Shown here: in pieces, positions 35,524-59,826 of the stretch
Position numbering within the stretch: position 1 is the first letter of the stretch
How the letters are laid out: every line of letters begins with the position of its first letter
Source: Planctomycetota bacterium
Lineage (GTDB): Bacteria; Planctomycetota; PLA2; JAEUHO01
Assembly: GCA_050248855.1 (NCBI GenBank)
Contig: JBFWRP010000001.1
Span: 59,134-123,133, forward strand
Length of the DNA stretch: 64,000 nucleotides
Reading direction: 5' to 3'
Position numbers and translations under genes: made by a program
Notes under the pieces: generated by a model
Told to the model about the DNA's origin: nothing
The model's database searches: none
The model's input: only the letters and a program-made list of their open reading frames with translations

Positions 35524-36078
35524 TCAGACGGCCCGGACTTCGAGCACCTCGGGAATCGTCTGGCGCAGGCGCGCCTCGATGCCCTGCTTGAGCGTGGCGA
35601 GCGACGAGGGGCAGCCCGCGCAGCTGCCCTTCATCCGCAGGTAGACGACGCCGTCGTCGAAGCGGTCGAACACGATGTCGCCGCCGTCACGGGCCACGGC
35701 GGGGCGGATCTGCGCGTCGAGGATCTCGATGACCTGCTGCGCCACGTCGTCGTAGTCGCCCGCGTGATCGCGGTCGGCCCAGGCGCTGGTCACCACCTCC
35801 ACGCCTTGCTCGAGCCAGGCGGGCAGGTCGCGCAGGACCGCGGCATGCACGTCCCCCATCACCGCGGGGTCGGAGACGGTCAGCGTGACGAAGTCGCGCC
35901 CGATCATCACCGCCGTGACGCCGCGGATGCCCAAGAGGCGCGCCCCCAGGGGCGACAGCGGCTCGGCCTCCGCCGCGCTGTCGAACGAGGCCGCACCGCG
36001 CTCGAGCAGGGGCCGCGAGACGGTGTACTTGAGCGTGTCGGGGTTGGGCGTGAACTCGAGCTGCACGTGGACGGTCAT
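35524..36078 (-). CDS. Nfu/NifU-type Fe-S cluster scaffold/carrier protein
   Basis: Nfu N-domain plus a NifU C-domain with the GSCAGCPSS CxxC motif. Start MTVHVQLEF at 36078 overlaps the acnA stop (ATGA). Confidence 0.8.
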   Translation of the reverse strand: MTVHVQLEFTPNPDTLKYTVSRPLLERGAASFDSAAEAEPLSPLGARLLGIRGVTAVMIGRDFVTLTVSDPAVMGDVHAAVLRDLPAWLEQGVEVVTSAWADRDHAGDYDDVAQQVIEILDAQIRPAVARDGGDIVFDRFDDGVVYLRMKGSCAGCPSSLATLKQGIEARLRQTIPEVLEVRAV

Positions 36079-38798
36079 GACGCGCTCCTTCCGGCGGCCC
36101 ACACCTGACGCAGCACGTAGGGCAGGATCCCGCCGTGTCGGTAGTACTCGACTTCGTCGGGGGTGTCGATGCGGCTGCGTACCTCGAACGAGGCGCGCGA
36201 GCCGTCCGCGCGATGGACGACCAGCTCCAGGCGCTGGCCGGGCGCGAGCCCCGCGGCGATGCCCGTCAGGTCGAACGTCTCCGTGCCCTCGAGCCCCAGG
36301 GCTTCCGCGGGGTCGCTGCCGTGGGCCATCTCCAGCGGCAGGACGCCCATGCCGATCAGGTTGCTGCGGTGGATCCGCTCGTAGGAGCGGGCCAGCACGG
36401 CACGCACGCCCAGCAGCAGGGTGCCCTTGGCCGCCCAGTCCCGGGACGAGCCCATGCCGTACCCTTCGCCGGCCACCAGCAGGGTCGGCACGCCTTCCTT
36501 CGCGTAGCGCAAGGACGCCTCGTAGATCGACATCACGTCGCCACCGGGCTGGTGCGTCGTGAAGCCGCCCTCCGTGCCCGGCGCCAAGCGGTTGCGCAAG
36601 CGCACGTTGCCGAACGTGCCGCGCACCATGACCTCGTGGTTGCCGCGGCGGCTGCCGTAGCTGTTGAAGTCCTTCGGCTCCACGCCGTGCTCGACGAGCC
36701 AGCGGCCTGCGGGACCCTTCGCTTGGATGGAGCCGGCCGGCGAGATGTGGTCCGTGGTGACGAAGTCCCCCAGCAGGGCGAGGAGGCGCGCACCGTGGAT
36801 GTCGCCCGGCTCGCTCGCCCCCGACGGCACGTCCTCGAGGAACGAGGGGCGGCGCACGTACGTGCTCTCCGGGTCCCAGGCGAAGCGATCCCCCTTCGGC
36901 ACGGGCAGGCCGCGCCACACGTCGTCGCCGTCGAACACCGAGGCGTACTCGTCGGCAAACTGCGCGGGCTTCACGGCGGTCCGCACGGCATCCGCGACCT
37001 CCTGCGGCGTGGGCCAGAGATCGGCCAGGTGCACGGGACGCCCCTCGGCGTCCTCGCCAAGCGGCTCCTTCACGAGGTCCAGGTCGACGGTGCCGGCGAG
37101 CGCGTAAGCCACGACCAACGGAGGCGAAGCGAGGTAGTTCGACTTGACCTGCGCGTTGACGCGGCCCTCGAAGTTGCGGTTGCCGGACAACACGGAGACC
37201 ACGTGCAAGTCCTCGTCGGCCACGCGCTTGCCCACGTGCGGGATGAGCGGGCCGCTGTTGCCGATGCACGTGGTGCAGCCGTAGCCCACCAGCGAGAAGC
37301 CGACAGCCGCCAGGTCGTCGAGCAGGCCGGCCTCCTCGAGGTAGCGCGTGACGACGCGCGATCCCGGCGCGAGGCTCGTCTTGACCCAGCTCTTGGCCTT
37401 CAGGCCGCGCGCGCGAGCCTTCCTGGCCACGAGCCCGGCGGCCAGCATCACGCTGGGGTTGCTCGTGTTCGTGCAGGACGTGATGGCGGCGATCACCACG
37501 CTTCCGTGCGTCAGCGTGTCCGGCGCCGTCGCGACGGCCATGGGCGCTGCGGTCGGGGCATCCGAGGTCATCGCGCCCGCCTCGCCCTGGACGTAGGCCG
37601 CGCGGAAGCTCTCCTGCATCGCGCCGAGCGGCACGCGGTCCTGGGGGCGCTTGGGACCCGCCAGGCTCGGCTCGACCGTGGCGAGGTCCAGCTCGATGAC
37701 CTCGCTGAAGACCGGCTCGTCCGTGGGACTCGCGAACAGCCCTTGCGCCTTGGCGTACGCCTCGACCCGGCGCACGTGCGCTTCGCTGCGACCCGTGAAG
37801 CGCAGGTAGGCCAGCGTCTCGCCGTCGATCGGGAAGAAGCCCATCGTGGCGCCGTACTCGGGCGCCATGTTGGCGAGCGTGGCGCGATCGGCCAGCGTGA
37901 GCGCAGGGAGGCCGGGGCCGAAGAACTCCACGAACTTGCCCACGACGCCCGCCTTGCGCAGGCGCTGCGTCACGGTGAGCACGAGGTCCGTGGCCGTCGT
38001 GCCGGCCGGAAGCGTGCCGACGAGGCGTAAGCCCACGACCTGCGGCACGAGCATCGTGACGGGCTGGCCCAGCATGGCCGCCTCGGCCTCGATGCCGCCC
38101 ACGCCCCAGCCCAGCACGCCGAGGCCGTTGACCATCGTCGTGTGGCTGTCGGTGCCGACGAGCGTGTCGGGCCACAGCGCGGGCTGGCCGTCCTGCCGGC
38201 CCTCGAACACCACGCTGGCCAGGTGTTCGAGGTTGATCTGGTGCACGATGCCCGTGCCCGGCGGCACCACGCGGAATCCGTCGAAGGCTCCGGCGGCCCA
38301 GCGCAGGAGCTCGTAGCGCTCGCGGTTGCGCTCGTACTCCAGCGCCACGTTCTGCGCGTAGGCCGTGGCGTCCCCGAAGTGATCCACCTGGACGCTGTGG
38401 TCGATCACCAGGTCGACGGGGATGTGCGGGTTGATGCGCCGCGGGTCGACGCCGCGCTCGGCGCTGGCGTCGCGCATGGCGGCGAGGTCCACGACACACG
38501 GCACCCCGGTGAAGTCCTGCAGCAGGACCCGGGCGGGCATGAAGGCGATCTCCGTCGTGGGATCGGCTTGGGGGTCCCAGCCGAGCAGGGCCTCGATGTG
38601 GTCCCGCGTCACGGTCCGGCCGTCCTCCCGCCGCAGCAGGTTCTCGAGCAGCACCTTCAGCGAGAAGGGCAGCCGTCGGACCTGCGGGTGCTTGCCCTCG
38701 GCCAGGGCCGCGAGGCTGGCCATGGCGTACGACGTGCCTTCGACCTCCAGGGTGGTCCGGGCGCCGAAGGAGTCGAGGAGGACAGGCGAGGAGCTCAT
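36075..38798 (-). CDS. acnA: Aconitate hydratase A
   Basis: 907 aa, with the three Fe-S ligand cysteines (SCTNTSNP, GCTTCIGNSG) and a swivel-domain SRRGNHEVMVRGTF motif. Confidence 0.95.
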   Translation of the reverse strand: MSSSPVLLDSFGARTTLEVEGTSYAMASLAALAEGKHPQVRRLPFSLKVLLENLLRREDGRTVTRDHIEALLGWDPQADPTTEIAFMPARVLLQDFTGVPCVVDLAAMRDASAERGVDPRRINPHIPVDLVIDHSVQVDHFGDATAYAQNVALEYERNRERYELLRWAAGAFDGFRVVPPGTGIVHQINLEHLASVVFEGRQDGQPALWPDTLVGTDSHTTMVNGLGVLGWGVGGIEAEAAMLGQPVTMLVPQVVGLRLVGTLPAGTTATDLVLTVTQRLRKAGVVGKFVEFFGPGLPALTLADRATLANMAPEYGATMGFFPIDGETLAYLRFTGRSEAHVRRVEAYAKAQGLFASPTDEPVFSEVIELDLATVEPSLAGPKRPQDRVPLGAMQESFRAAYVQGEAGAMTSDAPTAAPMAVATAPDTLTHGSVVIAAITSCTNTSNPSVMLAAGLVARKARARGLKAKSWVKTSLAPGSRVVTRYLEEAGLLDDLAAVGFSLVGYGCTTCIGNSGPLIPHVGKRVADEDLHVVSVLSGNRNFEGRVNAQVKSNYLASPPLVVAYALAGTVDLDLVKEPLGEDAEGRPVHLADLWPTPQEVADAVRTAVKPAQFADEYASVFDGDDVWRGLPVPKGDRFAWDPESTYVRRPSFLEDVPSGASEPGDIHGARLLALLGDFVTTDHISPAGSIQAKGPAGRWLVEHGVEPKDFNSYGSRRGNHEVMVRGTFGNVRLRNRLAPGTEGGFTTHQPGGDVMSIYEASLRYAKEGVPTLLVAGEGYGMGSSRDWAAKGTLLLGVRAVLARSYERIHRSNLIGMGVLPLEMAHGSDPAEALGLEGTETFDLTGIAAGLAPGQRLELVVHRADGSRASFEVRSRIDTPDEVEYYRHGGILPYVLRQVWAAGRSAS

Positions 38799-38953
38799 GG
38801 GTTCTCCGGGGGGACGGGCGCGGCCGCACCGCAGCGGCGGTCGCGCTCCCTTCCCCGGCAGGCTAGGACTGCGCTAGCCCCTTCCCAAGGGAAGGCGGCG
38901 CGACGGACGGGAACCCGCGCACCCTTCACGGGTCCAACCCGATCCGCCCGGAC

Positions 38954-38958
38954 GGAGG
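38954..38958 (+). promoter_or_regulatory. Shine-Dalgarno (GGAGG) for the giant ORF
   Basis: GGAGGAACCCCCTGATG places GGAGG 9 nt upstream of the ATG at 38968. Confidence 0.5.
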
Positions 38959-38967
38959 AACCCCCTG

Positions 38968-41900
38968 ATGCGCGCCCTGGGTCTCGTTTCGCTGGCCATC
39001 GTGCTGACTGCCGTCGTGCTGCCGCCGCTGCTGGCGGGCGGACGCATCGGCGAAGCCGGGGACGACGACCATCCCCCGGTGGCCGACGACGGTCGGGCCG
39101 GGACCGTGCGCACCGCGCAGGGCACCGTGCTGGTGCGCCCGGCCGGCAGCCTGCGCTTCACGCCGCTCGCCCGGGGCGACCTGCTCGCGGTCGGCGACTT
39201 CGTCCGCACGGCGGTGCCCGGCGCCCACCTCGCCGAGCTCGATCTCGTCGGCTCGCGCGTCGTCCTCGGCCCGGGAACGACCGTGCGGCTGGCGGCCCGC
39301 GATGCCGTGCACGTCGTCCAGGGCGAGCTCGAGGTCGTGCCCGCGCCCGGGGCCTCCGTCCAGGTGACGGGACCGGGGAGCTTCGCGCGGACCGTCACGG
39401 GGGCGCCTGCCGCCGAGGGCGGCCTCGCTCCCCGCCTGCAGCTCCGCTCCGACGGACGCGGCGTGGTCGAGCTCGAGAAGGAGCCGCGCTGGCTGACCAG
39501 CTGGCGGGCTGCGGCGGGTGCCGCGTGGGCCGGTGGCCTGACGGCGCAGATCGACGGTCGCGACGTGGACCTCGCCGTGGTCCGCCACGAGGTGACGGTC
39601 GAAGTCCGCGACCAGCTCGCGCGGACGACCATCGAGCAGGTCTTCCGCAACGCGACCGACGTTCGTACCGAAGGCACGTTCCGTTTCCCGCTTCCGGCCG
39701 GCGCCAGCATCAGCGGCTTCGCGATGTGGATCGGCGACGAGATGGTCGAAGCCGACATCGTCGAGCGCCAGCGCGCCCGGCAGATCTACGAGGACATCCT
39801 GCGTCGCAAGAAGGACCCGGGCCTCCTCGAGTGGGAGGGCGGCAACCTCTTCCAGGCTCGCGTGTTCCCGATCGAGGCACGTAGCACCAAGCGCGTCCGC
39901 GTGCGCTACACGCAAGTCCTGCCGCTCCAGGGCCAGGCCTACCGCTACCGCGTGCCGCTGACCAGCGAGCTGCTGCGCCAGAAGCCGCTCGAGCACCTCT
40001 CCGTCAAGCTGCGGCTGCAGAGCGAGACGCCGATTGCCCGCGTGACGTCCCCGACCCATCCGGTCAACGCGCGCACGACGGCCCACACGGCCGACGTCGA
40101 GTACATGCTCGAGGGTGCCTCGCCGGACCGCGATTTCGAGGTGGAGGTCGCCCTCACGTCACCGCCGGACTTGGTGCTGCTCCCCCACCGCCGTGGCGAC
40201 GATGGCTACTTCCTCGTCCAGCTGCGCCCGCCCACGCCGGAGGCCCAGGGGTTCGAGCGCACCTTGGTGCCCGAGGGCAAGCCTCTGGACGTCGTGCTCG
40301 TGGCCGACACGTCCGGCTCGATGTCCGCGTCGGCCCGTGAGGCGCAGGACCAGCTCTTCCGCGCGTTCGTGGCCCTGCTCGGCGCCGAGGACCGCGTGCG
40401 CCTGCTGGCCTACGACGTGAAGCCCGTGTGGCTCCTCGAGGAGCCGGCGGCTCCCGACGCCCAGGAGCTGGCCGGCGCGCTCGACGCACTGGCCGCGCGT
40501 CGCTCGCTCGGCTGGAGCGACGTGGACGCCGGCCTGGAAGCCGCGCTGGCGGCGGCCCCCGCAGGGGGCCTCGTGGTGCATGTCGGCGACGGCATCGTCA
40601 CCACGGGCGACGCCGATCCGCAGGCGGGGGCCGCGCGCTTGGCGGCGCTCGGCGAGCGCTTTCCGGGACGTGCGGTCCACGCCGTGGCGCCGTCCTCCAC
40701 GTACGAGGCGCCCGTGCTCGAGGCCCTGGCGCGCATCGGCGGCGGCTCGATGCGCACGACCGATCCCGCGGCGCCGGCCAGCACCGCGGCGGCCCTGCTG
40801 CGCGACGCGCTGCTGCCGCAGTGGAAGAACCTGAAGCTGCGCATCGAGGGCGTGCCGACGGCTCGCGTGTACCCCGAGGTGCTGCCCAACACGCCGGCGG
40901 GCACGCAGCTGATGGTGCTGGGGCGCTTCGCGCCCACCCAGGGCGACACGCAGGTCACCGTGCACGTCGAGGGGGACGGCCCCGAGGGTCCGGTCCGTGT
41001 CTCGACCCGGGCGGTGCTCCCCGGCACCGACGGCGGCAACGACTTCTTGCCGCGCCTCTGGGCCCGTCGTCACCTCGACGCCCTGCTCGAACAAGGGCCC
41101 GACGCGGAGACGCAGGCCGAGATCGTCGAGTTCAGCGAGCGCTTCGGCATCCTCACGCCGTACACCTCCCTGCTGGTGCTGGAGAGCGACGAGGACCGCG
41201 AGCGCTACGGCGTGGGTCGTCGTGTCCACATGCGCGACGGCGAGCGCTTTTTCGCCGAGGCCCGCGACACCGCCGTGCTCGAGGCGCGCCGCGCCGCGCT
41301 GCGCGAGGCGAGCGGCTGGCGCACGTGGCTGCGCGCGGCGGCGATGCAGGAGATCGCCGGACTGGGGCGTGACTTCGGCGTGCCGTTCCCGCCCCCGGAC
41401 CCGGGCGTCGTGACGCGGGGCGAGGGCGCCGACTCGGCGCTTGGCGAGCTCCTGGACGCCACGCTCGGCCTGCGCGACCAGCTGCAGGCCGGGAAGCTGC
41501 TCGAGCTGAAGCACGAGGGCGGCGAGTGGGCCGGCGGCTTGGAGGAAGAAGCCGAAGGGTCGTTCGGCCGCCGAGGGGGCGCGTCTCCCGGAAGCGGCGG
41601 CATGCCCCCGCCGGCGTCCGCCCCCAGGCCGAGGGCAGCCACGCGTGCCATGGACCAGGGCGACTCGGTCGATGGGCGGCTGGCCGACCGGGGCCTCTAC
41701 GCGAGCGAAGAGAGCGAGGAAGGCCTGGAGGCCGCAGCCGCCGAGCCCCAGCTCGCCGGCCCGTCCATCGAGGACCTCGACTTCGAAACGGACAACGACG
41801 ACTACGCCCCGGCCGACCGCCGTGCGTCGCTGCAGCGGGCCCGCAAGAGGCCGTCTGGGCGCCGCGAGGACCCGCGGCTGGCGCAGTCCAGCTCGCTCTG

Positions 41901-44900
41901 GGCCTCGCTGCGCACGAGCCCCTGGTGGGATGGCCTGGGGTGGCGCGAGCGCCCGGCACCGGGGCCGTCCGCGACGTCGCTCGGCTTCCCGCACGTACCG
42001 CCTGATCTGCCCGTGGCCGAGCCCGAGGCGCCCGAGACGCCCTGGCCCGCCGACCTCCGCGAACGCCTGGGTGCGCTGCTCCGTCGCGCTCGCTTCGTGC
42101 CCACCGCGGGCGCCTGGCACGTGACGGTGCTCGAGCGCACGATGCACCCGCTGCGTGGCATCCCCACACATGCCCGTCGCAGCGAGTCGTGGGTAGCGGC
42201 CGATGGCTGGTACCAGACGCTGCGCCAGGCAACGTCCGGCAGCGAGGCGGCCCAGTGGTGGCTGCTCGGCCGGCGCGGCGCCGTCGACGTGATCACGCGG
42301 CTGGCCATGACGCGCGCCGGCTCCGCGCGGGACGCGGGCGACTGGGGTCTTCCGCTCGCCGACCTCGAGAACGACCGCCTGGTGGCGGCGCTCGAGCACT
42401 CGCACGACGTCCGCATCACGAGCGACACCGAGGGCCGGGTGACGTTCCGGTTCACGCCGCGCGGTCCGCGCCCGGGGACCTGGCGCGAATGGGTCGTGGA
42501 CACGGCGCGCAAGGCCCTCGTGGAAGAGCGCATGGGCGACGAGCGCACGGGCCGCGTCCACTGGCGTCGCGTGCACGAGGGGCTCGTCGAGGTGGCCGGG
42601 GTCACGCTCCCGTCGCGCACGGTGAGCTACGACCGGGACGGTCGCGTCAACGCCGACCAGGCCTTCACGTGGGAGCTCGTGGATGCGACCGCGTGGACCG
42701 CCGCCGCGGCGCGCCTGGCGAACCCGGGCGAGGACGTGCTCGTGCTGGATGCGGAGCTGGCTTCGCTCGACGACGCCCGACTCGCCGTGGCCGAGGGCAA
42801 GGCCGGGCTCCGGGACCACCTCTCGTTGCTCGTGGACGCGGCCTCGCGGGCCGACGGCGACGCCGTGGCCACCCACCTTCGCGCCGCGCGCGGCGCGAAC
42901 CCCGCCACGCCGGAGGCCTTCGACGCGATTGCCCTGGGCGTGCTGGGCCGCGTGCGCCGGCCCGACGACATGGCCGCTCTCCGGCCGCGCTTGCTGGCCG
43001 ACGCCAAGGCCTCGCCGCCGTCCCGCGCCATCGCCCGGGCGCTTCGTGCGCTGCGCGGTCTGGGCGCGCAACTGGGCGCCAACGAGGTCCTCGCCCTGCT
43101 CGAGAGCGTGGCCGGCCTCTTGACGTCGGATCAGGACGTGGTCGTGGCCGAGGAGGCCGCGTGGCGCGACCTCGTCCACGACCGGGCCCGCCTGCAGGCG
43201 CTGGCGCGCGCCGAGCGGCGCCGCGAGGCCGTCGCGTTCCTGGCCGAGCTCGCGGAGCGCTGGCCCGCCGAGCTGGACCTCCAGCTCGCGTGGTCACGAG
43301 CGCTGCGCGAGCGCGGCGACCGGGCCGCTGCGCGTGCGTGGCTGACAGGAGCCCTCGAGCGTGGCGCACCGTGGCTGGACCACGAGCTGGACTCGCTCTA
43401 CACGACGATCACCGATGGCCTCTGGCAGGACCGCCTGCTGGACGACCTCGTCCAAGCCACGACGGCCTGGACCAGCAAGCGCCCGGACAACCCGGAGAGC
43501 TGGAAGCGCGCGGCCACCATCGCGTACTTGACCGGACGCGATGCCGAGACCGACGCCGAGCAGCTCGGGCTCCTGGCAGCACCTCCGGCCGGCCACGACG
43601 ACGACGTCCTCGCCGCGCGCCAGCAGACGGCCGTATGGCTCCTGCTGGGCGACGGCTGGCTCTTCGACGTGCAAGGCATCCTGCCGCAGCACGCCGAGGC
43701 GCTCGCACGCTTCGCGGCGGCTGCGTTCGCACAGGATGGCAGCCCTCCGCCCCGCATGTGGTCGCTGGCCGGGCGTATCGCCACCCACTGGCGCTTCCGC
43801 CGCACCGAAGGCAACCGCCTGCTCGAGGCCGCCCTGCGCGAGCAGCTGCTGGAGGGCGTCACGTCGGCGACCACCGAGCGTCTGCGCGTCCTCCTGGGGC
43901 GCGTCGTCCTTCGCGGCGACGCCCGCGGCGAAGACCGTGCTCGCGTCCTGGAGGCGCTGCGCGCGCGCCACGCTGCCGCCGAGGCACTCGACGAGCGCGA
44001 TGCGCTCGCGGACATGCTCCTTGGCTTGCTCGACCAGGCAGGAGAGGGCGAGGCCGCCCTGGACTTCCAGCGCGGGCGCCTGGCACGCCGTCGCGCGGCC
44101 GGGGAACCGGTCGAGGCAATCGTGCGCGACCTCGTGGAGCGCTTGCTGCGCACGGACGATGGCGACGCCGCCCGCGAAGACGAAGTCGTCGCCCTCGTGG
44201 GCACGTTCGCCGGCACCCAGGAAGACCACCGTGCCGCCACGGCCGATGCGGCCTCGTGGTCACGTCGCTTGGCGGGACGCTTCGAGGACTGGCGCGAGCG
44301 CACGGCGCTCGGTTCGCTCGAGGACCTCGCCAAGCTGTCGCGCGAGGCCCAGCGCGAAGCCCGGCGCGAAGCGCGGGATGCGGCACGGAGCCAGCTCGTG
44401 ACGCGCCTTCCCGCGTTGGCCCCGGCGCTGCCGGACGCCTTTGCCACGTGGCTCGAACTCGAGGCCCTGGCCGCAAGCGTCCAGTCCGGTACCGACATCG
44501 AGGCGCGCACGGCTGCGGCTCTTGGGCGCCTGGGCGCCGAGTGGGCGCGTGATCGGCGCCCGTCCGAACGGGTCCAGCGTGAGCGCTTGGCCACGGCGAT
44601 CGCGTTCGCCGCGCTGCGCAGGTCGCCGCCCGAAGGCTTGGCCGACCGCCTGCTGGCGGTCCTGGATGCGATCCACGAAGCCGATGCGTTCGCCCTCGAG
44701 GTCGGGGCCGACGAGGAGGTCGTCGAGATCCTCCTCGATGCCCGCTACCACGTGGCCCGACTCCTGGTGGCCCTGGATCGCGGGAGCGAGGTCCGCGAGC
44801 GCCTTGCCGCGTGGGTCGGCACCGAGGGCTCGTCGTCGCGTTGGACGGTGCTCTTGGCGCACCTCGAGGCCGAAGCCGGCGATCTCGCGGCGGCCGTCGC

Positions 44901-47775
44901 ACGTCTGGAGCCCCTGCGCACGAGCGGGGCACTCGGCGCGGACGTGCTCGCGCGCATCGGGACGTGGCAGCTCGCCCTTGGCGACGACTCCGCCCGCGAG
45001 CAGGCACGCCAAGCCGAGATCCAGGCCCTGCAGCCCTGGCAGCTGCGCAACCAGATCCGCTCGCACGCACGCAGCTTGTCGCGGCGGGGCGAGGCCGCCG
45101 GTGGCGAGCTCGAGCCCGCGGCGCTCCAGCTCGTGGAGGCCCTCCTGGCCCGCGTGCCGGACCCGGCTTCGTACACCGGCGACCTGCTCTCCCTCTACAT
45201 GCCCACCAAGGACCACCGCGTCGTGGCCATGCTCGCGCCGGGCCTCGTCGGGTTCACCACGGAACGGGCCTACAGCACGCTCGCAGCGCTGTCCGCCATC
45301 GTGGCGTCGGTCCACGAGGAGGCCACGATCGACGTCCTGCGCGAAGCGCTTGCCGGGCTTCGCGATCGGGCGCAGAGCCCCGTCGACCGCCGCGTGCTCG
45401 ATCTCGCCGAAGCCCGCGTGGCCGCGCGCGCGGCCGAGGTCCTGATGGCGGACCCGGCCCATGCGCGGGCCGCCGTGGCCGCGCTCGAGCGGGCGCTGGT
45501 CGCCGAACCGGTCGAGGGCGAGAGGTTGCTGCTCGCACGCCACCTCGTCAGCCTCGGGGCCCAGCGCGACCACGCGCTTGTCGACGTCGTCGTGCGCGGG
45601 CTCCGCGGGCTGATGGAGGGTCTGCCGGCGGCTGGCGAGGAGCGCCTGCGCATCGGCACGATGCTCGCGGGGCTGTTCGGCAACCTGAAGCGCTTCGACG
45701 CCCAGGAAGACCTCCTGGCCGGCCTGTGGGGCGAGGTCCGTGCGGCGCGGCCCGCGGAGCTCGATGTCGCGTCGAGCGAGTTGCTGCGCGCCCTCGTGGA
45801 CGCGCGGCTGGCGCGAGGACACGCGGAGCGCGCCGAAGCCGCCCTGCTGGCCGAGCTTGCCGAGCGCCCGGAAGCCCCGGCCGTCGACAGCTGGCGCGAG
45901 AAGCTCTTCGACGTGCGCGTGAACGCCCTGCAGCGCGGTCTCAGGACGAGACTCGGCGAGGGTGCCACCCTGTACCGCGCGCTGCGCGACGCACTCCGGT
46001 CGCGACTCGACGAGGAGGCCGACCGCGCCAGCGAGATCGCGTCGCGACTGGCCCAGGTGCACCAGGTCGCCGCGCTGCACGCGGCGTTGAAGGCCGTCGC
46101 CCGCGACGACCTGGAGGCCTGGTCGCAACAGGCGCTGCCGGCCGTACTGCGCCGCTTGCCCCAACAGGCCACGGGGGTAGCCGGCACGTTTGCGGGCGCC
46201 CTGGCCCAGCTCGGGGACCCGGCCGCGGGCCTCGCCCTGCTGCTGGATCGGGCCGAGGCCGAGCCGCGCTTCCTGGAGCGCGTGGAGTGGGACGTCGCGT
46301 CCCGTCAGCTGGATGCGATGGCCGTGTGGCGCCACGACGCGGGGGCCGTGGCCCGACCGCTGGTGGCGCGCCTCTTCGCGCTGGTGGAAGCCGCGCTCGA
46401 AGCGGCCCTCACGACCGGCGAGCGACACGGCAGTCGATTCTGGAACGCCCATGACCGGTACGGCTGGTCCGAGCGCTTCGACGACATGCAGGCGTTGATC
46501 GAGCGCGTCGTGGAGCGCGAGAGCGACAACGCCTCGGTGGCGTGGCGTGGCGCGCAGATCCTGCACGGCCCGATGCGCCGTCCGGGTGCCGGCATCGACG
46601 TGCTCGAGGCCGCCGTCGGTCGTCTGCCCGACGAGGACAACCTGCGCCGGTCGCTGGCGGGGTGGCTCCTGGAAGCGGGTCGCGCCTCGCGTGCGCGCCC
46701 GCATGCCGAGCTCCTCGTGAAGCAGCGCCCCGACCACTGGAACGACCGCGACCTGCTCGCGCGCGTCTTGATCGCCGTGCGCGACCAAGCGGCGCTCGGC
46801 GAGCTGCTCGACGAGACGGCGCGTCTCTGGCGGGAGAAGAAAGCCTTCCCCTCGGGCACGGCCCGGCACCTCGGGGAGCGCGCCACCGAGGGTGGCCTGG
46901 GCGATCGTGCCCTGGCCTGGCTGGACGAAGCCGTGCGGCTGAGGCGCGAGGAGCGCGGCGATGTGGGCGGCCAGGACCACTGGTTGGCCGACACCTACAC
47001 GTTGCTCGCCCGGGCCCGATCCGCTGCGGGCGACGACGCAGGGGCGTTCGAAGCCTCGCGGGCCGCGCTCGTGATGACGTCCGCGCGCGATGCCAACCGC
47101 GTCCGCGAGGCGCGTCAGGAGATCGAGAAGGTCCTCGCGGGCGCGCGGGACCTCGCCTCCTTGGACGCGGCCTACGAGGCGGAGGTCGCCGAGTCGGGCT
47201 TGGACGCGGCCGTCCTGCGGCAGGCGTTCGCCGCGGTCTGGCGCCAGCAGGGCAGGCTGGAGCGGGCGGAGCACCACCTGCTCGAGGCCCGCGACGTCGA
47301 GCCCGACGACGCCAGCGTGCACGGCGCGTTGGTGGCGCTGTACGACGAGATGAAGCGGCCGGCGGATGCGGTGGCCGCGCTCTACGGCTCGATCGAGCTG
47401 GCCCCGCTCGGCTACGACGCCTACGAAGACCTCGCGCGGCGTTTGGCGGCTCTCGGCGACGAGGCCGGGCGAGAACGCGCGCTCACGTCCCTGGCCGAGC
47501 CCGCGCCGCACCAGGCGGAAGGACATCGTCGTCTGGGCCGTGCGTTCACGGGCGACGGTCGGTTGGACGCCGCGCTCGTGCAGTGGGCGCAGGTCGTTCG
47601 CACCGAGCGCCTGGATCCCACCGGCTGGCTCGAGTACGCGGAGGCCGCCGTACGCGCGGGCGACACGGCCACGGCACGCAAGGCGTTGCAGCACGTCCTG
47701 GAAGGAAGCTGGGAAGAGCGCTTCGGCCCCGTCAAGCAACAGGCCGCCGCGCGACTCGCCCGCCTGCCCTCATGA
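38968..47775 (+). CDS. Giant secreted VIT-vWA protein with an alpha-helical (TPR/HEAT-like) C-terminal extension of about 2,100 aa
   Basis: 8,808-nt uninterrupted frame with a good SD. Signal peptide MRALGLVSLAIVLTAVVLPPLLAGG. VIT domain (FRFPLPAGASISGFAMWIGDEMVEADIVERQRARQIYEDIL...NLFQARVFPI...RVRYTQVLP). vWA domain with MIDAS (VVLVADTSGSMS). Then an acidic disordered linker and a helical region of about 2,100 aa with no P-loop. Confidence 0.85.
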   Translation: MRALGLVSLAIVLTAVVLPPLLAGGRIGEAGDDDHPPVADDGRAGTVRTAQGTVLVRPAGSLRFTPLARGDLLAVGDFVRTAVPGAHLAELDLVGSRVVLGPGTTVRLAARDAVHVVQGELEVVPAPGASVQVTGPGSFARTVTGAPAAEGGLAPRLQLRSDGRGVVELEKEPRWLTSWRAAAGAAWAGGLTAQIDGRDVDLAVVRHEVTVEVRDQLARTTIEQVFRNATDVRTEGTFRFPLPAGASISGFAMWIGDEMVEADIVERQRARQIYEDILRRKKDPGLLEWEGGNLFQARVFPIEARSTKRVRVRYTQVLPLQGQAYRYRVPLTSELLRQKPLEHLSVKLRLQSETPIARVTSPTHPVNARTTAHTADVEYMLEGASPDRDFEVEVALTSPPDLVLLPHRRGDDGYFLVQLRPPTPEAQGFERTLVPEGKPLDVVLVADTSGSMSASAREAQDQLFRAFVALLGAEDRVRLLAYDVKPVWLLEEPAAPDAQELAGALDALAARRSLGWSDVDAGLEAALAAAPAGGLVVHVGDGIVTTGDADPQAGAARLAALGERFPGRAVHAVAPSSTYEAPVLEALARIGGGSMRTTDPAAPASTAAALLRDALLPQWKNLKLRIEGVPTARVYPEVLPNTPAGTQLMVLGRFAPTQGDTQVTVHVEGDGPEGPVRVSTRAVLPGTDGGNDFLPRLWARRHLDALLEQGPDAETQAEIVEFSERFGILTPYTSLLVLESDEDRERYGVGRRVHMRDGERFFAEARDTAVLEARRAALREASGWRTWLRAAAMQEIAGLGRDFGVPFPPPDPGVVTRGEGADSALGELLDATLGLRDQLQAGKLLELKHEGGEWAGGLEEEAEGSFGRRGGASPGSGGMPPPASAPRPRAATRAMDQGDSVDGRLADRGLYASEESEEGLEAAAAEPQLAGPSIEDLDFETDNDDYAPADRRASLQRARKRPSGRREDPRLAQSSSLWASLRTSPWWDGLGWRERPAPGPSATSLGFPHVPPDLPVAEPEAPETPWPADLRERLGALLRRARFVPTAGAWHVTVLERTMHPLRGIPTHARRSESWVAADGWYQTLRQATSGSEAAQWWLLGRRGAVDVITRLAMTRAGSARDAGDWGLPLADLENDRLVAALEHSHDVRITSDTEGRVTFRFTPRGPRPGTWREWVVDTARKALVEERMGDERTGRVHWRRVHEGLVEVAGVTLPSRTVSYDRDGRVNADQAFTWELVDATAWTAAAARLANPGEDVLVLDAELASLDDARLAVAEGKAGLRDHLSLLVDAASRADGDAVATHLRAARGANPATPEAFDAIALGVLGRVRRPDDMAALRPRLLADAKASPPSRAIARALRALRGLGAQLGANEVLALLESVAGLLTSDQDVVVAEEAAWRDLVHDRARLQALARAERRREAVAFLAELAERWPAELDLQLAWSRALRERGDRAAARAWLTGALERGAPWLDHELDSLYTTITDGLWQDRLLDDLVQATTAWTSKRPDNPESWKRAATIAYLTGRDAETDAEQLGLLAAPPAGHDDDVLAARQQTAVWLLLGDGWLFDVQGILPQHAEALARFAAAAFAQDGSPPPRMWSLAGRIATHWRFRRTEGNRLLEAALREQLLEGVTSATTERLRVLLGRVVLRGDARGEDRARVLEALRARHAAAEALDERDALADMLLGLLDQAGEGEAALDFQRGRLARRRAAGEPVEAIVRDLVERLLRTDDGDAAREDEVVALVGTFAGTQEDHRAATADAASWSRRLAGRFEDWRERTALGSLEDLAKLSREAQREARREARDAARSQLVTRLPALAPALPDAFATWLELEALAASVQSGTDIEARTAAALGRLGAEWARDRRPSERVQRERLATAIAFAALRRSPPEGLADRLLAVLDAIHEADAFALEVGADEEVVEILLDARYHVARLLVALDRGSEVRERLAAWVGTEGSSSRWTVLLAHLEAEAGDLAAAVARLEPLRTSGALGADVLARIGTWQLALGDDSAREQARQAEIQALQPWQLRNQIRSHARSLSRRGEAAGGELEPAALQLVEALLARVPDPASYTGDLLSLYMPTKDHRVVAMLAPGLVGFTTERAYSTLAALSAIVASVHEEATIDVLREALAGLRDRAQSPVDRRVLDLAEARVAARAAEVLMADPAHARAAVAALERALVAEPVEGERLLLARHLVSLGAQRDHALVDVVVRGLRGLMEGLPAAGEERLRIGTMLAGLFGNLKRFDAQEDLLAGLWGEVRAARPAELDVASSELLRALVDARLARGHAERAEAALLAELAERPEAPAVDSWREKLFDVRVNALQRGLRTRLGEGATLYRALRDALRSRLDEEADRASEIASRLAQVHQVAALHAALKAVARDDLEAWSQQALPAVLRRLPQQATGVAGTFAGALAQLGDPAAGLALLLDRAEAEPRFLERVEWDVASRQLDAMAVWRHDAGAVARPLVARLFALVEAALEAALTTGERHGSRFWNAHDRYGWSERFDDMQALIERVVERESDNASVAWRGAQILHGPMRRPGAGIDVLEAAVGRLPDEDNLRRSLAGWLLEAGRASRARPHAELLVKQRPDHWNDRDLLARVLIAVRDQAALGELLDETARLWREKKAFPSGTARHLGERATEGGLGDRALAWLDEAVRLRREERGDVGGQDHWLADTYTLLARARSAAGDDAGAFEASRAALVMTSARDANRVREARQEIEKVLAGARDLASLDAAYEAEVAESGLDAAVLRQAFAAVWRQQGRLERAEHHLLEARDVEPDDASVHGALVALYDEMKRPADAVAALYGSIELAPLGYDAYEDLARRLAALGDEAGRERALTSLAEPAPHQAEGHRRLGRAFTGDGRLDAALVQWAQVVRTERLDPTGWLEYAEAAVRAGDTATARKALQHVLEGSWEERFGPVKQQAAARLARLPS

Positions 47776-47809: not shown

Positions 47810-48115
47810 ATGCCCGAGGCCCCCGTCGTCGAACCGGAGCAGACGACCGACACCACGACGCAGGACGCGCCGCGGTGGAAGGTCCTGCTCCACGACGACG
47901 ACGTCACGACCATCGACTTCGTCGTGTGGCTCTTGATGCGCGTCTTTGCCAAGCCGGCGGAGGAAGCCGTGGAGCTGACGCTCAAGGTGCACCGCACGGG
48001 CGTGGCCATCGTGGCCGTCACCAGCTTCGAGCGCGCCGAGCTCTACGTGGAGCAGGTCCACTCGCTGGCCCGCCCCCGCGGCTATCCCCTCACCGCCACC
48101 CTCGAACAGGCCTAG
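47810..48115 (+). CDS. clpS: ATP-dependent Clp protease adaptor
   Basis: RWKVLLHDDDVTTIDFVVWLLMRVF...HRTGVAIVAVTSFERAELYVEQV matches the ClpS core. 35 nt downstream of the giant ORF. No clpA follows. Confidence 0.85.
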   Translation: MPEAPVVEPEQTTDTTTQDAPRWKVLLHDDDVTTIDFVVWLLMRVFAKPAEEAVELTLKVHRTGVAIVAVTSFERAELYVEQVHSLARPRGYPLTATLEQA

Positions 48116-48202
48116 GTGGGTGCACGATTTGGGGTGCGAGCGTGCGGCTCGCCAGATGCTTGGTCCCGCGCCTCCATCGGCTCCTCGAGTCCGTAGCACC
48201 TT

Positions 48203-48229
48203 GCGCGGCCGGCCAAGGCCGGCCGACGC
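48203..48229 (+). terminator. GC-rich hairpin (GGCCGGCC-AA-GGCCGGCC) downstream of clpS
   Basis: Perfect 8-bp stem with a 2-nt loop and flanking partial pairing. No U-tract, as expected in high-GC genomes. Confidence 0.35.
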
Positions 48230-48310
48230 AGACCACGAGTCGTCGCCGATGGAGGCGCGCTACCGTCGCCCTGGCGACCCGATGCGATGTCATTGCCCAT
48301 CCAGGAAACC

Positions 48311-48400
48311 GTGTGTACGGAGGCGGGGCTTCCTTCCGCAGCTTGCCGATCGGTGCCCGCGCCTGGGAGGGATTCCTTCGGCAGGCTGCGGAAGGATTCC
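48311..48400. repeat. Degenerate third copy of the palindromic element
   Basis: Left terminus TGTGTACGGAGGCGGGG and right terminus GGATTCCCCGCCACC resemble the GTACGGAGGCGGGAAA / TTTCCCGCCTCCGTAC ends. An internal CCTTCCGCAGC / GCTGCGGAAGG stem is also present. Confidence 0.45.
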
Positions 48401-48664
48401 CCGCCACCTGCTGCCTCTGGTCCGCGGGTTCATCCCCCGCGCCGAAGGCGCAACCTGGCTTCTCATCCCCATGCCCAGGCCCCGATTGTCCAAGGGGCCG
48501 CCTACGCCGGCGGGCGACATGTCGCTCGACTACGTGATCGGGGCGCCAGGGCGAGGGCCGCGGGCAGCCGCGCGGTCTGTCCACGCAAGGACCCAGCGCG
48601 GCAATCCGCGGCCCCGCACCTGACGCGCCGCACCTTCGCGCGACACGAGCTTCGACCGACCCAG

Positions 48665-48805
48665 CTAGCAGGGCTCGTCGAGGAGGTCGCACGGCTCGTA
48701 GCAGGACCACGGGTCGTTGCAGCGAGCCTTCATGCAGCCGGCCAGCGTGAGCGTGCCGAGCGCGAGGGCGAGAACGGCGAGGATGCGGAAGTTACGAGCG
48801 CGCAT
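48665..48805 (-). CDS. Tiny cysteine-rich lipoprotein (46 aa)
   Basis: MRARNFRILAVLALALGTLTLAGC lipobox, then a 23-aa mature peptide with 5 Cys (CMKARCNDPWSCYEPCDLLDEPC). Confidence 0.5.
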   Translation of the reverse strand: MRARNFRILAVLALALGTLTLAGCMKARCNDPWSCYEPCDLLDEPC

Positions 48806-48858: not shown

Positions 48859-49050
48859 TCAGGGGCAACAGCGATCCGGAGGCGGGTCCTGACACAGGGA
48901 CGGACAGACCGGGCCGAAGCGCCCCGGGGGCCACGCCTCGCACTCGCAGTCCACGGACCGGCTGGCACAGCCCCCCAGGCCCAGCAGGGCCAGGAGCAGC
49001 AGTGCCAGCACGGCGCGGCCAGGAAGCGAACGGTGGTCGACGGTACGCAC
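48859..49050 (-). CDS. Tiny cysteine-rich lipoprotein (63 aa)
   Basis: GTG start, signal and lipobox LLALLGLGGC, then a 36-aa mature peptide with 8 Cys (CASRSVDCECEAWPPGRFGPVCPSLCQDPPPDRCCP). Confidence 0.45.
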   Translation of the reverse strand: MRTVDHRSLPGRAVLALLLLALLGLGGCASRSVDCECEAWPPGRFGPVCPSLCQDPPPDRCCP

Positions 49051-49192: not shown

Positions 49193-50887
49193 ATGCTCCG
49201 CCCGATGCACCGCGCCTTCCTGCTGCTCACGCTTGCCTCGTGCCTCACGGCCGCTTCCGCCTGGGCGCGCGACGACGATGTCGAGGCCCTCGTCGCCCAG
49301 CTCGAGAAGAACGCGCGGGATCCCTTCGAGCAGCGCGAGCGCGAGGCGGCGATCCGCAAGCTGGCCGACGTGGCCACCCCTTCGGCGGCCGAGGCCCTGG
49401 TCCCGATCCTCGACGACCCCTTCGAGCACCTCCACGATCGCGTCGTGTCCGCATGGATCGAGATGCTGCGCACGAACCGTAGCGGCGACCTGCACACGAT
49501 GTTCGCCCAGCGCCTCCTGAAGCACCGCAACCCGGCGGTTCGCGCCGGAGCGGCCACTGCGCTCGGGCTGTCCAGCGGTGCGGAGATGGCCGAGGACTTC
49601 CGCGGCTCGCTTCGCTCCGAGAAGGACGCGAGCGTTCTCGTGCGCCTCTGCCAGGGCGCCCTGAAGCTGCGGGAGAAGCCGGATCTGGCGGGTGCCTTCG
49701 TGCCCTTGCTCGGCCACAAGGACGGCGCCGTCGTCGAGGCGGCCGCCCTGGCTTGCGTGCGGTACGAGCCCGGCGACGAGACGGACGCCGCCCTGCGCAA
49801 GGCGCTCGCGCGCCACAGGGACCCGCTGGCGCGCGCGGGCGCGCTGCAGGCACTGGCGGCACGCGGAACGCTGGCGGCGGCCGACTTCGGCGAAGGGTTC
49901 TCCGACGACGCGATCGAGACACGCGTGGCCCTTGCCCGTGCGTTGCCCTCCCCATCCCCCCATCTCGCGGTTCCCGGACCGGGGCGCGATGTGCTCGTGT
50001 CCCTCTTGGGCGACCCGTCGTGGCGTGTGCGGGTGGCGGCGGTGCAAGCAGCGCTTCGGCTCTGGCACGCGGACGTCGTCATGCCCCTGATCGCGCGTCT
50101 GGAGGTCGAGACCGGCCGCGTGCGCGACGACGTGCACCGGGCCCTGGTCACGCTGACGGGCGCCGATGTCGCCGCGGACGCGCAGCTGTGGACCGTGTGG
50201 TGGGCGGCGCGGGGCGAGACGTTCGACCCCGGCGAGCGCCCGGATGCGGACGCCGGGGGGCGGATCCGCTTCCGGGAGCCGCAGCACGGCAACGGCTCAC
50301 CCGGTACGAAGACGGTCGCCTTCTACGACCTGCCGCTCGCGAGCGAGAGGCTGGTCTTCGTGTTCGATCTCTCGGGCAGCATGGGCAAGGCGGACGGCGA
50401 TGCCGCGGGACGCAGCAAGCTCGACGTGCTGCGCGAGCGGTTTGCGACCGTCCTGGCCGAGCTCCCCGAGTCGACGCACTTCGACGTGTGGGTGTGGCGC
50501 TACCCCAGCTCCTACCCGCCCAAGCCGAAGCTGGAGCGCGCCTTCGACAAGCTCCAGCCGCTGACGGCAGGCAACCGTGCCAAGGCCCAGAAGTGGATGG
50601 CCAAGCAGGAAGCCAAGGGCTGGGGCGCGTTCTTCGAGCCCATCGAGGCCGCCCTCACCGAGGACATCGACACGCTGGTCCTCCTCTCGGACGGTGTACC
50701 CAGCCGAGGCCGCTACGAGCGCCGCGATCGCCTGCTCGTCGAAGTCGCCCAGGCCAACCGCTACGCGGGCCTTCGCGTGGACACGATCCTCGCCGGGACC
50801 AAGGGCACCGACCGCGCCTTCATGGACGACCTCGCCGCTTCGACGGGAGGCCGTTCCCGGGCCGTTGCCGGCCGCGAAGATCGCTGA
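49193..50887 (+). CDS. Secreted HEAT-repeat + vWA domain protein
   Basis: Signal peptide, an N-terminal HEAT/PBS-lyase repeat region of about 330 aa, and a C-terminal vWA with MIDAS (VFVFDLSGSMGK). Confidence 0.75.
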   Translation: MLRPMHRAFLLLTLASCLTAASAWARDDDVEALVAQLEKNARDPFEQREREAAIRKLADVATPSAAEALVPILDDPFEHLHDRVVSAWIEMLRTNRSGDLHTMFAQRLLKHRNPAVRAGAATALGLSSGAEMAEDFRGSLRSEKDASVLVRLCQGALKLREKPDLAGAFVPLLGHKDGAVVEAAALACVRYEPGDETDAALRKALARHRDPLARAGALQALAARGTLAAADFGEGFSDDAIETRVALARALPSPSPHLAVPGPGRDVLVSLLGDPSWRVRVAAVQAALRLWHADVVMPLIARLEVETGRVRDDVHRALVTLTGADVAADAQLWTVWWAARGETFDPGERPDADAGGRIRFREPQHGNGSPGTKTVAFYDLPLASERLVFVFDLSGSMGKADGDAAGRSKLDVLRERFATVLAELPESTHFDVWVWRYPSSYPPKPKLERAFDKLQPLTAGNRAKAQKWMAKQEAKGWGAFFEPIEAALTEDIDTLVLLSDGVPSRGRYERRDRLLVEVAQANRYAGLRVDTILAGTKGTDRAFMDDLAASTGGRSRAVAGREDR

Positions 50888-59033: not shown

Positions 59034-59142
59034 GGGTCCCGGGTTCGTACCTCGGCGGGTGGGAGGGTCACGGGAGCCGGCCGCGGGACGGTGGGTCCGC
59101 CCGGCCGGGCTCTCTCCGTGCCCTTGGAACGGGACACGGGGC

Positions 59143-59826
59143 TCATGGTTCGAACCCCCGCGCCGAAAGCCAGGCCCGCAGGCGTCGGACGGCCGCGTGG
59201 ACCCGCGACTTCACGGTGCCGACGGGGATCTCGAGGATCTCCCCGATCTCCTGGTAGCGCAGCCCCTCGACCTGGGACAGGGTCCAGACCTCCAGCAGGT
59301 CGGGCGGCAGGCTCGCGAGGGCCTCCTCCAAGGCCCGGCCAAGCTCCCCGCCGGCCAGGCTCTCCGGCGGAGGCGCCTCCGTCCCGGGCAGGCGCGAGGC
59401 CAGGGTGCTGCCCTCCTCGGCGTCGCCGCGCAGGTCCGCGGAGATCGTGTTCGGCTGGATGCCCTCGTGGCGCAACCGGTCGATCCAGTGGTTGCGCGCG
59501 ATGCGGAAGGCGTACGTCGTGAAACGGGCCTTCGCGACGTAGCTGCGCCGCGCCCGGTAGACCTTGACCAGGACCTCCTGCGCACCGTCCTCGGCCTCGT
59601 CCGGGCGTGCTCCCAAGCGGCGGAAGTAGCCGACGAGACGCGGGTAGACCAGCTCGACGAGCGGCGCGAACGCAGCTCGGTCGCCGGCGGCGACGCGGAG
59701 CATCAGCTCGGTCAGGGGGTCCTGCACGCTCGGGAGGATACGGAGGCCGTAGATGCGACGGCCGGAATCGTCGCTGGGGAGCTGGCGTGCAGGAGACTCG
59801 CGTCGACTCGCGTCGACTCGCGTCAA
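59143..59826 (-). CDS. ECF-subfamily RNA polymerase sigma-70 factor
   Basis: Region 2 (AQEVLVKVYR...FTTYAFRIARNHWIDRLR) and region 4 (LEVWTLSQVEGLRYQEIGEILEIPVGTVKSRVHAAVRRLR). The true start may be the internal MLRV near 59700. Confidence 0.85.
   Translation of the reverse strand: MTRVDASRRESPARQLPSDDSGRRIYGLRILPSVQDPLTELMLRVAAGDRAAFAPLVELVYPRLVGYFRRLGARPDEAEDGAQEVLVKVYRARRSYVAKARFTTYAFRIARNHWIDRLRHEGIQPNTISADLRGDAEEGSTLASRLPGTEAPPPESLAGGELGRALEEALASLPPDLLEVWTLSQVEGLRYQEIGEILEIPVGTVKSRVHAAVRRLRAWLSARGFEP

Follow-up and report, generated by a model that had tools for sequence, protein, structure and literature searches.

Is a reading frame of 2,935 codons a single gene and, if so, what does its product do? 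The question is raised by a giant frame on the plus strand of a 64,000-nucleotide stretch from a Planctomycetota bacterium (positions 59,134 to 123,133 of contig JBFWRP010000001.1, assembly GCA_050248855.1; hereafter the window, in whose numbering plain coordinates are given). Very large numbers of extracytoplasmic function (ECF) sigma factors and many giant genes are found in Planctomycetota, and for almost none of them is a signal or function known. We found that the frame is one continuous, real coding gene for an exported VIT-vWA protein, and that its family is large, conserved and uncharacterised, with most of the members examined coming from Planctomycetota. Half of the relatives that could be scored are coupled to an ECF sigma factor. 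The window protein corresponds to the putative periplasmic part alone of such sigma-linked members and most likely acts in the periplasm without direct sigma control.

The frame is a single continuous gene

The gene and its putative ribosome-binding site lie as follows.

38954..38959, plus strand: Shine–Dalgarno-like GGAGGA, 8 nt before the ATG, read from the sequence
38968..47775, plus strand: complete giant VIT-vWA gene, ATG start, 2,935 codons plus stop

The encoded protein is identical to an NCBI entry (P0001) named 'VIT domain-containing protein' from a Planctomycetota metagenome-assembled genome (MAG). The stop-to-stop frame opens at 38878, with an in-frame stop 90 nt 5' of the ATG, and its earliest start codon is at 38968; because this is the first possible start in the frame, the protein cannot extend further at its N terminus. 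The start had been proposed in a first annotation made from the letters of the window (the sequence-only reading) on the basis of a Shine–Dalgarno sequence and an N-terminal signal sequence, and both are present, as GGAGGA and as a hydrophobic segment at amino acids (aa) 1–25.

The same annotation took the open 8.8-kb frame itself as strong evidence of coding. Coding was confirmed, but length turned out to be the weaker argument, because long antisense shadow open reading frames (ORFs), of 1,159 and 1,006 codons, occur within the same high-GC gene (GC content of the DNA, 74%; window range, 69–76%). The coding assignment relies instead on frame-specific GC at third codon positions (GC3), low dN/dS throughout and colinear full-length homologues. 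GC at the three codon positions is 0.80/0.53/0.90 overall, and GC3 is 0.72–0.94 in each of fifteen 600-nt windows. Compared with the orthologue at locus L001 (~80% identical overall; such labels denote the homologous loci, 88 of which entered the neighbourhood comparison), dN/dS was 0.03–0.36 in all fifteen 200-codon windows, with its minimum in the VIT domain and its maximum (0.36) in the linker described below. For the orthologue at L005 (~58% identical), dS is distorted by the extreme GC3 and the dN/dS values are uninformative. We aligned 60 colinear full-length homologues of 2,693–3,892 aa as extracted; the largest of these lengths are first-start over-extensions, and the called genes are ~2,700–3,300 aa. 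The frame is thus not split by the frameshift or stop that the first annotation had allowed for: homologues are colinear with it, and purifying selection extends over its full length. Scans for sigma-70 promoters and terminators around the gene ends gave nothing useful.

Architecture of the giant protein

We assigned the following parts to the protein, from the N to the C terminus.

38968..39042, plus strand: N-terminal hydrophobic segment (aa 1–25) found by a hydropathy scan and read as a Sec signal peptide
39085..39387, plus strand: tentative FecR-like beta domain (aa ~40–140) with the conserved motif DGR.G.V...QG
39583..39909, plus strand: VIT domain (aa 206–314; PF08487, 102.4 bits against a cutoff of 26.5, 2e-29)
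40288..40752, plus strand: vWA domain (aa 441–595) with a complete metal-ion-dependent adhesion site (MIDAS); PF13768 (VWA_3), 38.7 bits against a cutoff of 27, 1.3e-9
40753..41337, plus strand: post-vWA, ITIH-like region (aa 596–790), from the ITIH4 9c4f and TIGR03788 alignments
41365..41967, plus strand: linker (aa ~800–1000), rich in Pro, Gly and Ser, net acidic and probably disordered, from composition
42112..42681, plus strand: LolA-like beta domain of 13 strands (aa ~1049–1238), from a structural model
42766..47772, plus strand: TPR-type alpha/alpha superhelix (aa ~1267–2935; ~1,665 aa, ~90 helices in regular hairpins)
47122..47697, plus strand: the only stretch that is canonical TPR by sequence (aa ~2720–2910), from profile A3 against the PDB

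The hydropathy scan found no hydrophobic segment other than that at aa 1–25. It begins at residue 3, and with just 2 residues ahead of it the window protein has no cytoplasmic domain. Homologues that, like the window gene, lack an adjacent sigma factor gene (sigma-less members) have classical signal-peptide-like N termini with A-x-A-type sites. Downstream of this segment, a family profile (A4; aa ~37–200, 40 homologues) gave one weak match in the PDB, to the N-terminal domain of MtxA (4z29, E = 0.0035), which we tentatively take to be FecR-like. The N-terminal region had no match to Pfam FecR (PF04773) at E ≤ 1, and neither Pfam nor NCBIfam gave anything significant for the N-terminal 196 aa.

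The VIT domain is the most conserved part of the family, with a mean consensus identity of 0.85–0.89 in a 61-sequence alignment, and a PDB sequence search matched it to the VIT domain of PARP4. The MIDAS of the vWA domain comprises D447, S449, S451, S517 and D541; D447, S449, S451 and D541 are invariant in all 61 family sequences, and position 517 holds T in 49 of them and S in the other 12. The DTSGS at 447 is the sole DxSxS motif in the protein. The complete VIT and vWA head that the sequence-only reading had recognised therefore holds, with both Pfam domains above their cutoffs and every MIDAS residue in place. The region after the vWA domain is homologous to the C-terminal part of ITIH heavy chains and of bacterial VIT-vWA proteins: ITIH4 (9c4f) matched over aa 434–790 (E = 3.2e-9) in a PDB sequence search, and the NCBIfam model TIGR03788 aligned over aa 337–744, with 162.4 bits against a curated cutoff of 551.65. 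Walker A, HExxH, LPXTG and PEP-CTERM motifs are all absent from the protein, as is the ITIH-type DPHF processing motif (searched as DP[HF]F); the lack of a Walker A agrees with the earlier statement that the tail contains no NTPase motif. Homologue searches with the N-terminal 800 aa returned mostly fragments of 450–1,400 aa and no clear stand-alone relatives of 700–900 aa. We also observed that the protein contains no cysteine in its 2,935 residues; close relatives have 1–5 and more distant ones 4–26. This absence may partly be a consequence of the extreme GC content, although it is striking at such a size.

The remainder of the protein had been described as an acidic disordered linker followed by an alpha-solenoid of ~2,100 aa. 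The linker exists, but conservation and gaps place it at aa ~800–1000 rather than 780–900: its consensus identity is 0.11–0.23 with 37–68% gaps, its length ranges from 82 to 284 aa in the family, and its modelled end has a predicted local distance difference test score (pLDDT) below 50. The tail is indeed long and helical, but not wholly so, as it consists of the linker, a 13-strand domain and ~1,665 helical residues. AlphaFold2 models built from 9-sequence alignments had mean pLDDT values of 84.3 (aa 985–2050) and 89.6 (aa 1950–2935). In the model, the beta domain is an unclosed half-barrel that can be superposed on LolA and LolB. Weak Pfam LolA_like matches were found in 5 of 19 homologues (best E = 0.004) and none in the window protein; a profile of the domain matched nothing among PDB sequences, and searches of the domain in Pfam and NCBIfam gave nothing significant.

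The superhelix that follows is nearly fixed in length across the family (1,379–1,723 aa, median 1,654) and nearly free of gaps, and in the 61-sequence alignment 135 positions past aa 1000 are conserved at ≥90%. The best structural matches of both modelled halves were long TPR or HAT scaffolds, namely Ski3, Ctr9, IFT-A, the TPR region of OGT and subunits of APC/C. Profile A3 matched engineered and consensus TPR proteins and the OGT TPR (E = 1e-49 to 1e-14), and sub-threshold NCBIfam matches of PrsT/PilW type fall in the same stretch (aa ~2720–2910). For the other ~1,450 helical residues, the likeness to TPR comes from the predicted structure only.

A large family with a fixed domain order

Searching with the last 1,986 aa recovered the identical protein and 13 homologues. 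Eleven of these are 2,701–3,189 aa long and all have VIT at the N terminus, most of them with vWA as well; the remaining two, of 1,328 and 2,272 aa, stem from incomplete gene calls. In an exhaustive hidden Markov model search with the middle region (aa 985–2050), 1,464 representatives passed E ≤ 1e-3 and 484 of them E ≤ 1e-30; the representatives are clusters at 50% identity, and at least 484 of these match the region. In the full-length proteins listed, the middle region lies at residues ~850–1,350 and lengths fall into two modes, ~2,800–2,900 and ~3,100–3,200 aa; entries below these lengths appear fragmentary. With the full-length alignment, 486 stretches that encode relatives were identified in a scan covering one genome for each GTDB species. 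Nearly all of the best 80 of these span aa ~38–2925. The carriers are Gemmataceae, Thermoguttaceae, Pirellulaceae, Lacipirellulaceae, Singulisphaera, Phycisphaerae and the cultured Zavarzinella formosa DSM 19928, whose copy (L024) is of the sigma-linked form described below; a few are MAGs labelled Verrucomicrobia, Kiritimatiellae, Blastocatellia or other groups.

The family order is signal peptide, FecR-like domain, VIT, vWA, ITIH-like region, linker, LolA-like domain and TPR superhelix. The sequence-only reading had not recognised this architecture as a described family, and we likewise found no published description, but it is not the one-off fusion that it had appeared to be: it is a fixed, colinear arrangement found in at least 484 clusters and 486 stretches. 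The architecture is undescribed in the full-text literature that we covered, including the ECF re-classification (PMC7826278), although surveys of planctomycete ECF factors lay outside this coverage and an earlier mention of the sigma-linked form is possible. The nearest ECF groups mentioned are ECF289, with a DUF3520-vWF anti-sigma, and ECF267, with a FecR-like anti-sigma containing TPRs in Proteobacteria (PMC7826278).

In five MAG loci (L010, L046, L081, L085 and L087) the giant ORF is split into pieces of 887–1,246 aa across which tblastn similarity continues; the two L010 pieces meet at about aa 665–670. Such breaks are probably assembly frameshifts, and they swell the count of 'partial VIT domain-containing proteins' among database entries.

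Half of the family is linked to an ECF sigma factor

All-against-all clustering of flanking ORFs revealed one dominant cluster, present in 35 loci and always upstream of, and on the same strand as, the giant gene. Its members match Pfam Sigma70_r2 and Sigma70_r4_2 and TIGR02937, and this ECF sigma factor is the only family-wide conserved neighbour. Beyond it and its shadow ORFs (13–23 loci), no neighbour cluster was present in more than 8 of 87 loci; the clustering showed no conserved downstream partner, and no MoxR-like gene was found among the annotated neighbourhoods, in contrast to MoxR/Bat-type vWA systems. Of the 68 loci in which the 5' end is complete and the upstream sequence is long enough to be scored, 34 are sigma-linked, two degraded copies counted. 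The sigma stop and the giant's ATG overlap by 4 nt in 14 of the 35 loci, and the distance between the two genes is −11 to +30 nt in 26 of the 35.

The N termini of sigma-linked giants share a distinct organisation. They begin with a conserved segment of ~40 residues (consensus ...D.E.IAALL...DA.PPD.AFL.RLRE.ST..F), which is followed by a basic cluster and then by a transmembrane (TM) helix at residues ~56–108. Most sigma-less members have a hydrophobic segment at residues 1–22, and in sigma-less members VIT lies at residues ~172–200. Searches of the relatives' cytoplasmic segments against Pfam and NCBIfam gave nothing significant. Many sigma-linked members have an extra domain of ~190 residues after the TM helix, which precedes the shared FecR-like, VIT and vWA body. 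Weak LolA matches to this extra domain were found in 2 of 21 sequences, and its profile matched nothing among PDB sequences. Aligned with hhalign, the extra domain and the beta domain of the tail gave a probability of 1%, which leaves their relatedness unproven despite the weak LolA matches in both. A database fragment of 711 aa (P0275) carries a precomputed LolA match (PF03548) N-terminal to VIT, which supports a LolA-like extra domain. Another entry, of 1,292 aa (P0170), contains Sigma70_r2, VIT and vWA in one protein and could be either a sigma–giant fusion or a merged gene call.

Upstream of the linked sigma genes we identified the motif CGACA[CG]A-N12-14-GCGCAAA. With both strands searched, it has 12 matches in 1.8 Mb of loci (L004, L018, L044, L046, L055, L059, L066, L069, L072, L075, L077 and L085; for example, L004:9216-9241), and all 12 copies are on the coding strand just 5' of linked sigma genes. 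The motif is what would be expected of an autoregulated ECF promoter, and we regard it as a candidate for one. Gene order and topology together suggest that sigma-linked members act as single-pass anti-sigma factors, with ~2,850–3,100 of their residues in the periplasm.

The window copy differs from these members. Two genes of the window bear on the comparison.

36075-38798, divergent from the giant gene: acnA, the upstream neighbour
59176-59712, minus strand: the only ECF sigma factor gene in the window (Sigma70_r2, r4_2, Sigma70_ECF), 11 kb from the giant gene

No co-oriented ECF sigma gene adjoins the giant gene here, where the upstream position is taken by acnA. The ECF factor encoded in the window is 25–32% identical to the sigma factors linked to giants, and the promoter-like motif is absent from the window and from sigma-less loci. 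In a neighbour-joining (NJ) tree of the head region, rooted at its midpoint, the sigma-linked forms make up one large clade in which three sigma-less forms are nested; the remaining sigma-less forms, the window copy included, fall in other clades. Sigma-less forms may tentatively be regarded as basal.

At two distant sigma-less loci, we observed a PMT_2-type glycosyltransferase gene directly upstream of the giant (L003:4498-5478 and L006:7820-9832), which may be coincidental.

Comparison with known systems

Like ITIH heavy chains and bacterial VIT-vWA proteins, the window protein has a VIT domain followed by a MIDAS-complete vWA domain and a homologous post-vWA region. Unlike ITIH, it lacks the DPHF motif used for covalent transfer; unlike the marine proteobacterial sortase target described by TIGR03788, it falls far under the model's cutoff (162 versus 552 bits) and has no LPXTG. 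Compared with both, it adds a tentative N-terminal FecR-like domain and ~2,100 residues of linker, LolA-like domain and TPR superhelix.

The linked half of the family resembles single-pass ECF anti-sigma factors of the FecR type in that the sigma gene is upstream and translationally coupled, and in the combination of a short cytoplasmic N terminus, one TM helix and a putative periplasmic FecR-like domain. The periplasmic part of the linked relatives is roughly ten times longer than in FecR, which is about 320 aa in total. The window protein departs from this type in lacking the cytoplasmic segment, a TM anchor beyond the signal sequence and an adjacent sigma gene. A second point of comparison is the anti-sigma DdvA, whose periplasmic region of ~900 residues was termed 'unusually large' and whose bulky periplasmic TPR-containing domain has been proposed to block RseP sterically until it is removed (PMC11506125). 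Compared with the TPR-CHAT protein DdvA, the body of the family is about three times larger and has the VIT-vWA head and LolA-like domain instead. Pfam found no CHAT domain in the window protein, and a His-Cys dyad is impossible in it because it contains no cysteine.

The tail has looser parallels. LolA, LolB and RseB share the half-barrel type, but in the giant this predicted fold is embedded in a huge polypeptide and sequence similarity is marginal; lipid binding is conceivable. Ski3, Ctr9, IFT-A and the OGT TPR are eukaryotic cytoplasmic or nuclear scaffolds, and the likeness is one of generic fold (10–17% identity, TM-scores 0.15–0.4) that implies no function beyond 'protein-binding platform'. 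The window protein thus has the features of a VIT-vWA protein and lacks those of TIGR03788 members, of ITIH-type processing, of anti-sigma factors and of DdvA-like proteins.

Proposed role of the window protein

On balance, and with moderate confidence, we favour the view that the window gene encodes a Sec-exported periplasmic protein of ~310 kDa that serves as a metal-dependent binding or scaffold protein, equivalent to the body of its putative anti-sigma relatives without sigma control. A periplasmic location is likely because sigma-linked members have the homologous body anchored at the inner membrane and because LPXTG and PEP-CTERM signals are absent; independence from a sigma factor is expected because there is no cytoplasmic segment, no adjacent sigma gene and no promoter motif. 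One possible mechanism is that the VIT-vWA head binds a conserved ligand of the envelope by coordinating an acidic side chain at the MIDAS metal, by analogy with integrin I-domains and ITIH. The LolA-like domain may offer a hydrophobic cavity for a lipid or lipoprotein, and the rigid TPR superhelix, with its fixed length, could be a spacer or a platform on which partner proteins dock. Regulated proteolysis of the anchor would pass on the state of this assembly in the sigma-coupled relatives, and for anchored forms a DdvA-like relay is plausible, in which the bulky periplasmic TPR domain would block RseP until removed. In the window copy, the assembly would work as a free envelope scaffold or receptor.

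Several points weigh against this account. The hydrophobic stretch of ~21 residues could instead be an uncleaved signal anchor. We infer the ligand, the partners and even the compartment, and both the TPR superhelix and the vWA domain are interaction modules of a generic kind that would fit many other roles. The putative anti-sigma role of the linked relatives is drawn from gene order and topology only, and their cytoplasmic segment, at ~40 aa, falls short of the length of a class I anti-sigma domain and had no match among known families. The tentative FecR-like identity of aa ~40–140 comes from a single weak profile match (E = 0.0035). The NJ tree, on which a basal position of the sigma-less forms depends, is midpoint-rooted and unbootstrapped.

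A broader proposal, to which we give little weight, is that the family comprises undescribed envelope-surveillance machines of the Planctomycetes–Verrucomicrobia–Chlamydiae superphylum, built on an ancestral periplasm-spanning body of fixed length (~2,900 residues), a structural element or receptor made up of the VIT-vWA head, a LolA-like lipid sensor and a TPR rod, that was repeatedly coupled to or uncoupled from an ECF sigma factor. If this were true, the coupled forms would far exceed all known anti-sigma factors in size, and sigma-less copies such as that of the window would retain the basic structural or binding function, one particular to the planctomycete envelope.

For the window taken by itself, what is gained is modest, namely that the gene is correctly annotated and a spurious module hypothesis is removed (see below). 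The family-level finding is more interesting than the sigma-less copy itself, as an anonymous 'VIT domain-containing protein' becomes a defined family of hundreds of members with a fixed eight-part architecture and both free and sigma-coupled states. Should the coupled members be true anti-sigma factors, their periplasmic sensor would be about three times the size of that of DdvA (PMC11506125), and the promoter motif would permit regulon prediction for sigma-coupled operons. The ~87% consensus identity of the VIT-vWA head among the varied planctomycete lineages in the alignment points to a conserved ligand in the envelope.

Alternative explanations and the neighbourhood of the gene

The best-surviving alternative, though an unlikely one, is that the giant is a cell-surface or extracellular adhesin, with the VIT-vWA head binding outside and the TPR tail serving as a stalk, in line with the 'adhesion or sensing module' of the sequence-only reading. 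VIT-vWA proteins do include surface-anchored sortase targets, and the alignment of TIGR03788 over aa 337–744, the intact MIDAS, the signal peptide and the lack of cysteines would all suit such a role. However, LPXTG and PEP-CTERM are missing, no surface-sorting or secretion domain was matched in Pfam or NCBIfam, and no secretion-system genes are conserved nearby. In half of the family, moreover, the N-terminal TM helix anchors the protein in the cytoplasmic membrane, with the head close to that membrane, and the solenoid, being of fixed length and conserved at specific positions, differs from the expandable repeats of adhesins.

In the sequence-only reading, the giant, clpS, a second secreted protein with vWA and HEAT domains and two Cys-rich mini-lipoproteins had also been seen as a coherent extracytoplasmic module. 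A further explanation is therefore an operon-like unit whose genes work together. The genes concerned are as follows.

47810-48115, plus strand: clpS, starting 35 nt past the giant's stop
48665-48805, minus strand: Cys-rich mini-lipoprotein ORF with a lipobox-like signal, the ~46-aa member of a pair (about 46 and 63 aa)
48859-49050, minus strand: Cys-rich mini-lipoprotein ORF with a lipobox-like signal, the other member of the pair
49193-50887, plus strand: HEAT-repeat protein with a signal peptide and DLSGS in its C-terminal ~190 aa

The lipobox-like signals of the two small ORFs are LAGC and LGGC. The HEAT repeats and signal peptide of the second secreted protein were confirmed; its vWA domain is sub-threshold only (VWA_3, 18 bits against a cutoff of 27), accompanied by the DLSGS motif. 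Genes for GcvT and Lgt are also among the neighbours of the giant in the window. In favour of a module, clpS is on the same strand at its short distance from the giant, and L001, L005 and L010 share the order acnA, giant, clpS, two small ORFs, HEAT protein, gcvT and lgt, which L023, L026 and L035 keep in part.

This linkage does not extend through the family, and we consider a functional module improbable. In tblastn searches of the window's neighbour proteins against all 88 loci, AcnA had matches in 9, ClpS in 8, HEAT-vWA in 7, GcvT in 5, Lgt in 4 and each mini-lipoprotein in 4. Loci that share genes of the proposed module have best-segment identities of ~49–81% and all belong to the window's clade, and six members at 29–38% overall identity have unrelated neighbours. 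The co-occurrence of clpS and the vWA-HEAT gene across orthologue neighbourhoods, which had been put forward as a check, is thus confined to the closest clade (8 and 7 of the 88 loci). Because the housekeeping genes are retained to the same extent (acnA, gcvT, gcvH and lgt are conserved equally), the neighbours amount to plain lineage synteny. In the window the mini-lipoprotein genes lie on the strand opposite to the giant gene, and in L005 they are inverted; the giant is exported, whereas ClpS is a cytoplasmic adaptor. A module of clpS, HEAT-vWA and mini-lipoprotein genes, with these neighbours in 4–8 of 88 loci and absent from the more distant members read, was therefore rejected as a family-level linkage.

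It is less probable still that the window protein is itself the anti-sigma factor of an ECF sigma encoded elsewhere. Its homology to the sigma-linked members extends over the whole length, and an ECF gene does occur in the window (59176-59712). Nevertheless, with 2 residues before the hydrophobic segment and a stop 90 nt upstream, there is no room for a cytoplasmic sigma-binding segment; the ECF factor is only 25–32% identical to the linked ones and is encoded 11 kb away on the other strand, and the promoter-like motif of the linked operons is missing from the window.

That the gene is an artefact, either a chance high-GC ORF or two genes fused by an assembly or frameshift error, has a negligible chance of being correct: antisense shadow ORFs of ~1,000–1,160 codons do arise by chance, and homologues are broken in L010, L046, L081, L085 and L087, but frame-specific GC3, full-length purifying selection and colinear homologues from many families with the same domain order all speak for a single genuine gene.

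Other observations in the window

The ~550 bp between clpS and the first mini-lipoprotein gene (48116-48664) showed no clear codon-position GC signal and had no Rfam match. The mini-lipoproteins are kept in L001, L005 and L010; in L005 they are on the giant's strand, which indicates a local inversion. Orthologues of the HEAT protein are confined to the window's clade. We also identified a tmRNA gene in the window.

25979-26332, plus strand: tmRNA gene, Rfam 136.8 bits, with the tag peptide ANSNYALAA predicted by ARAGORN

The region of L001 that is syntenic to this tmRNA gene contains smpB.

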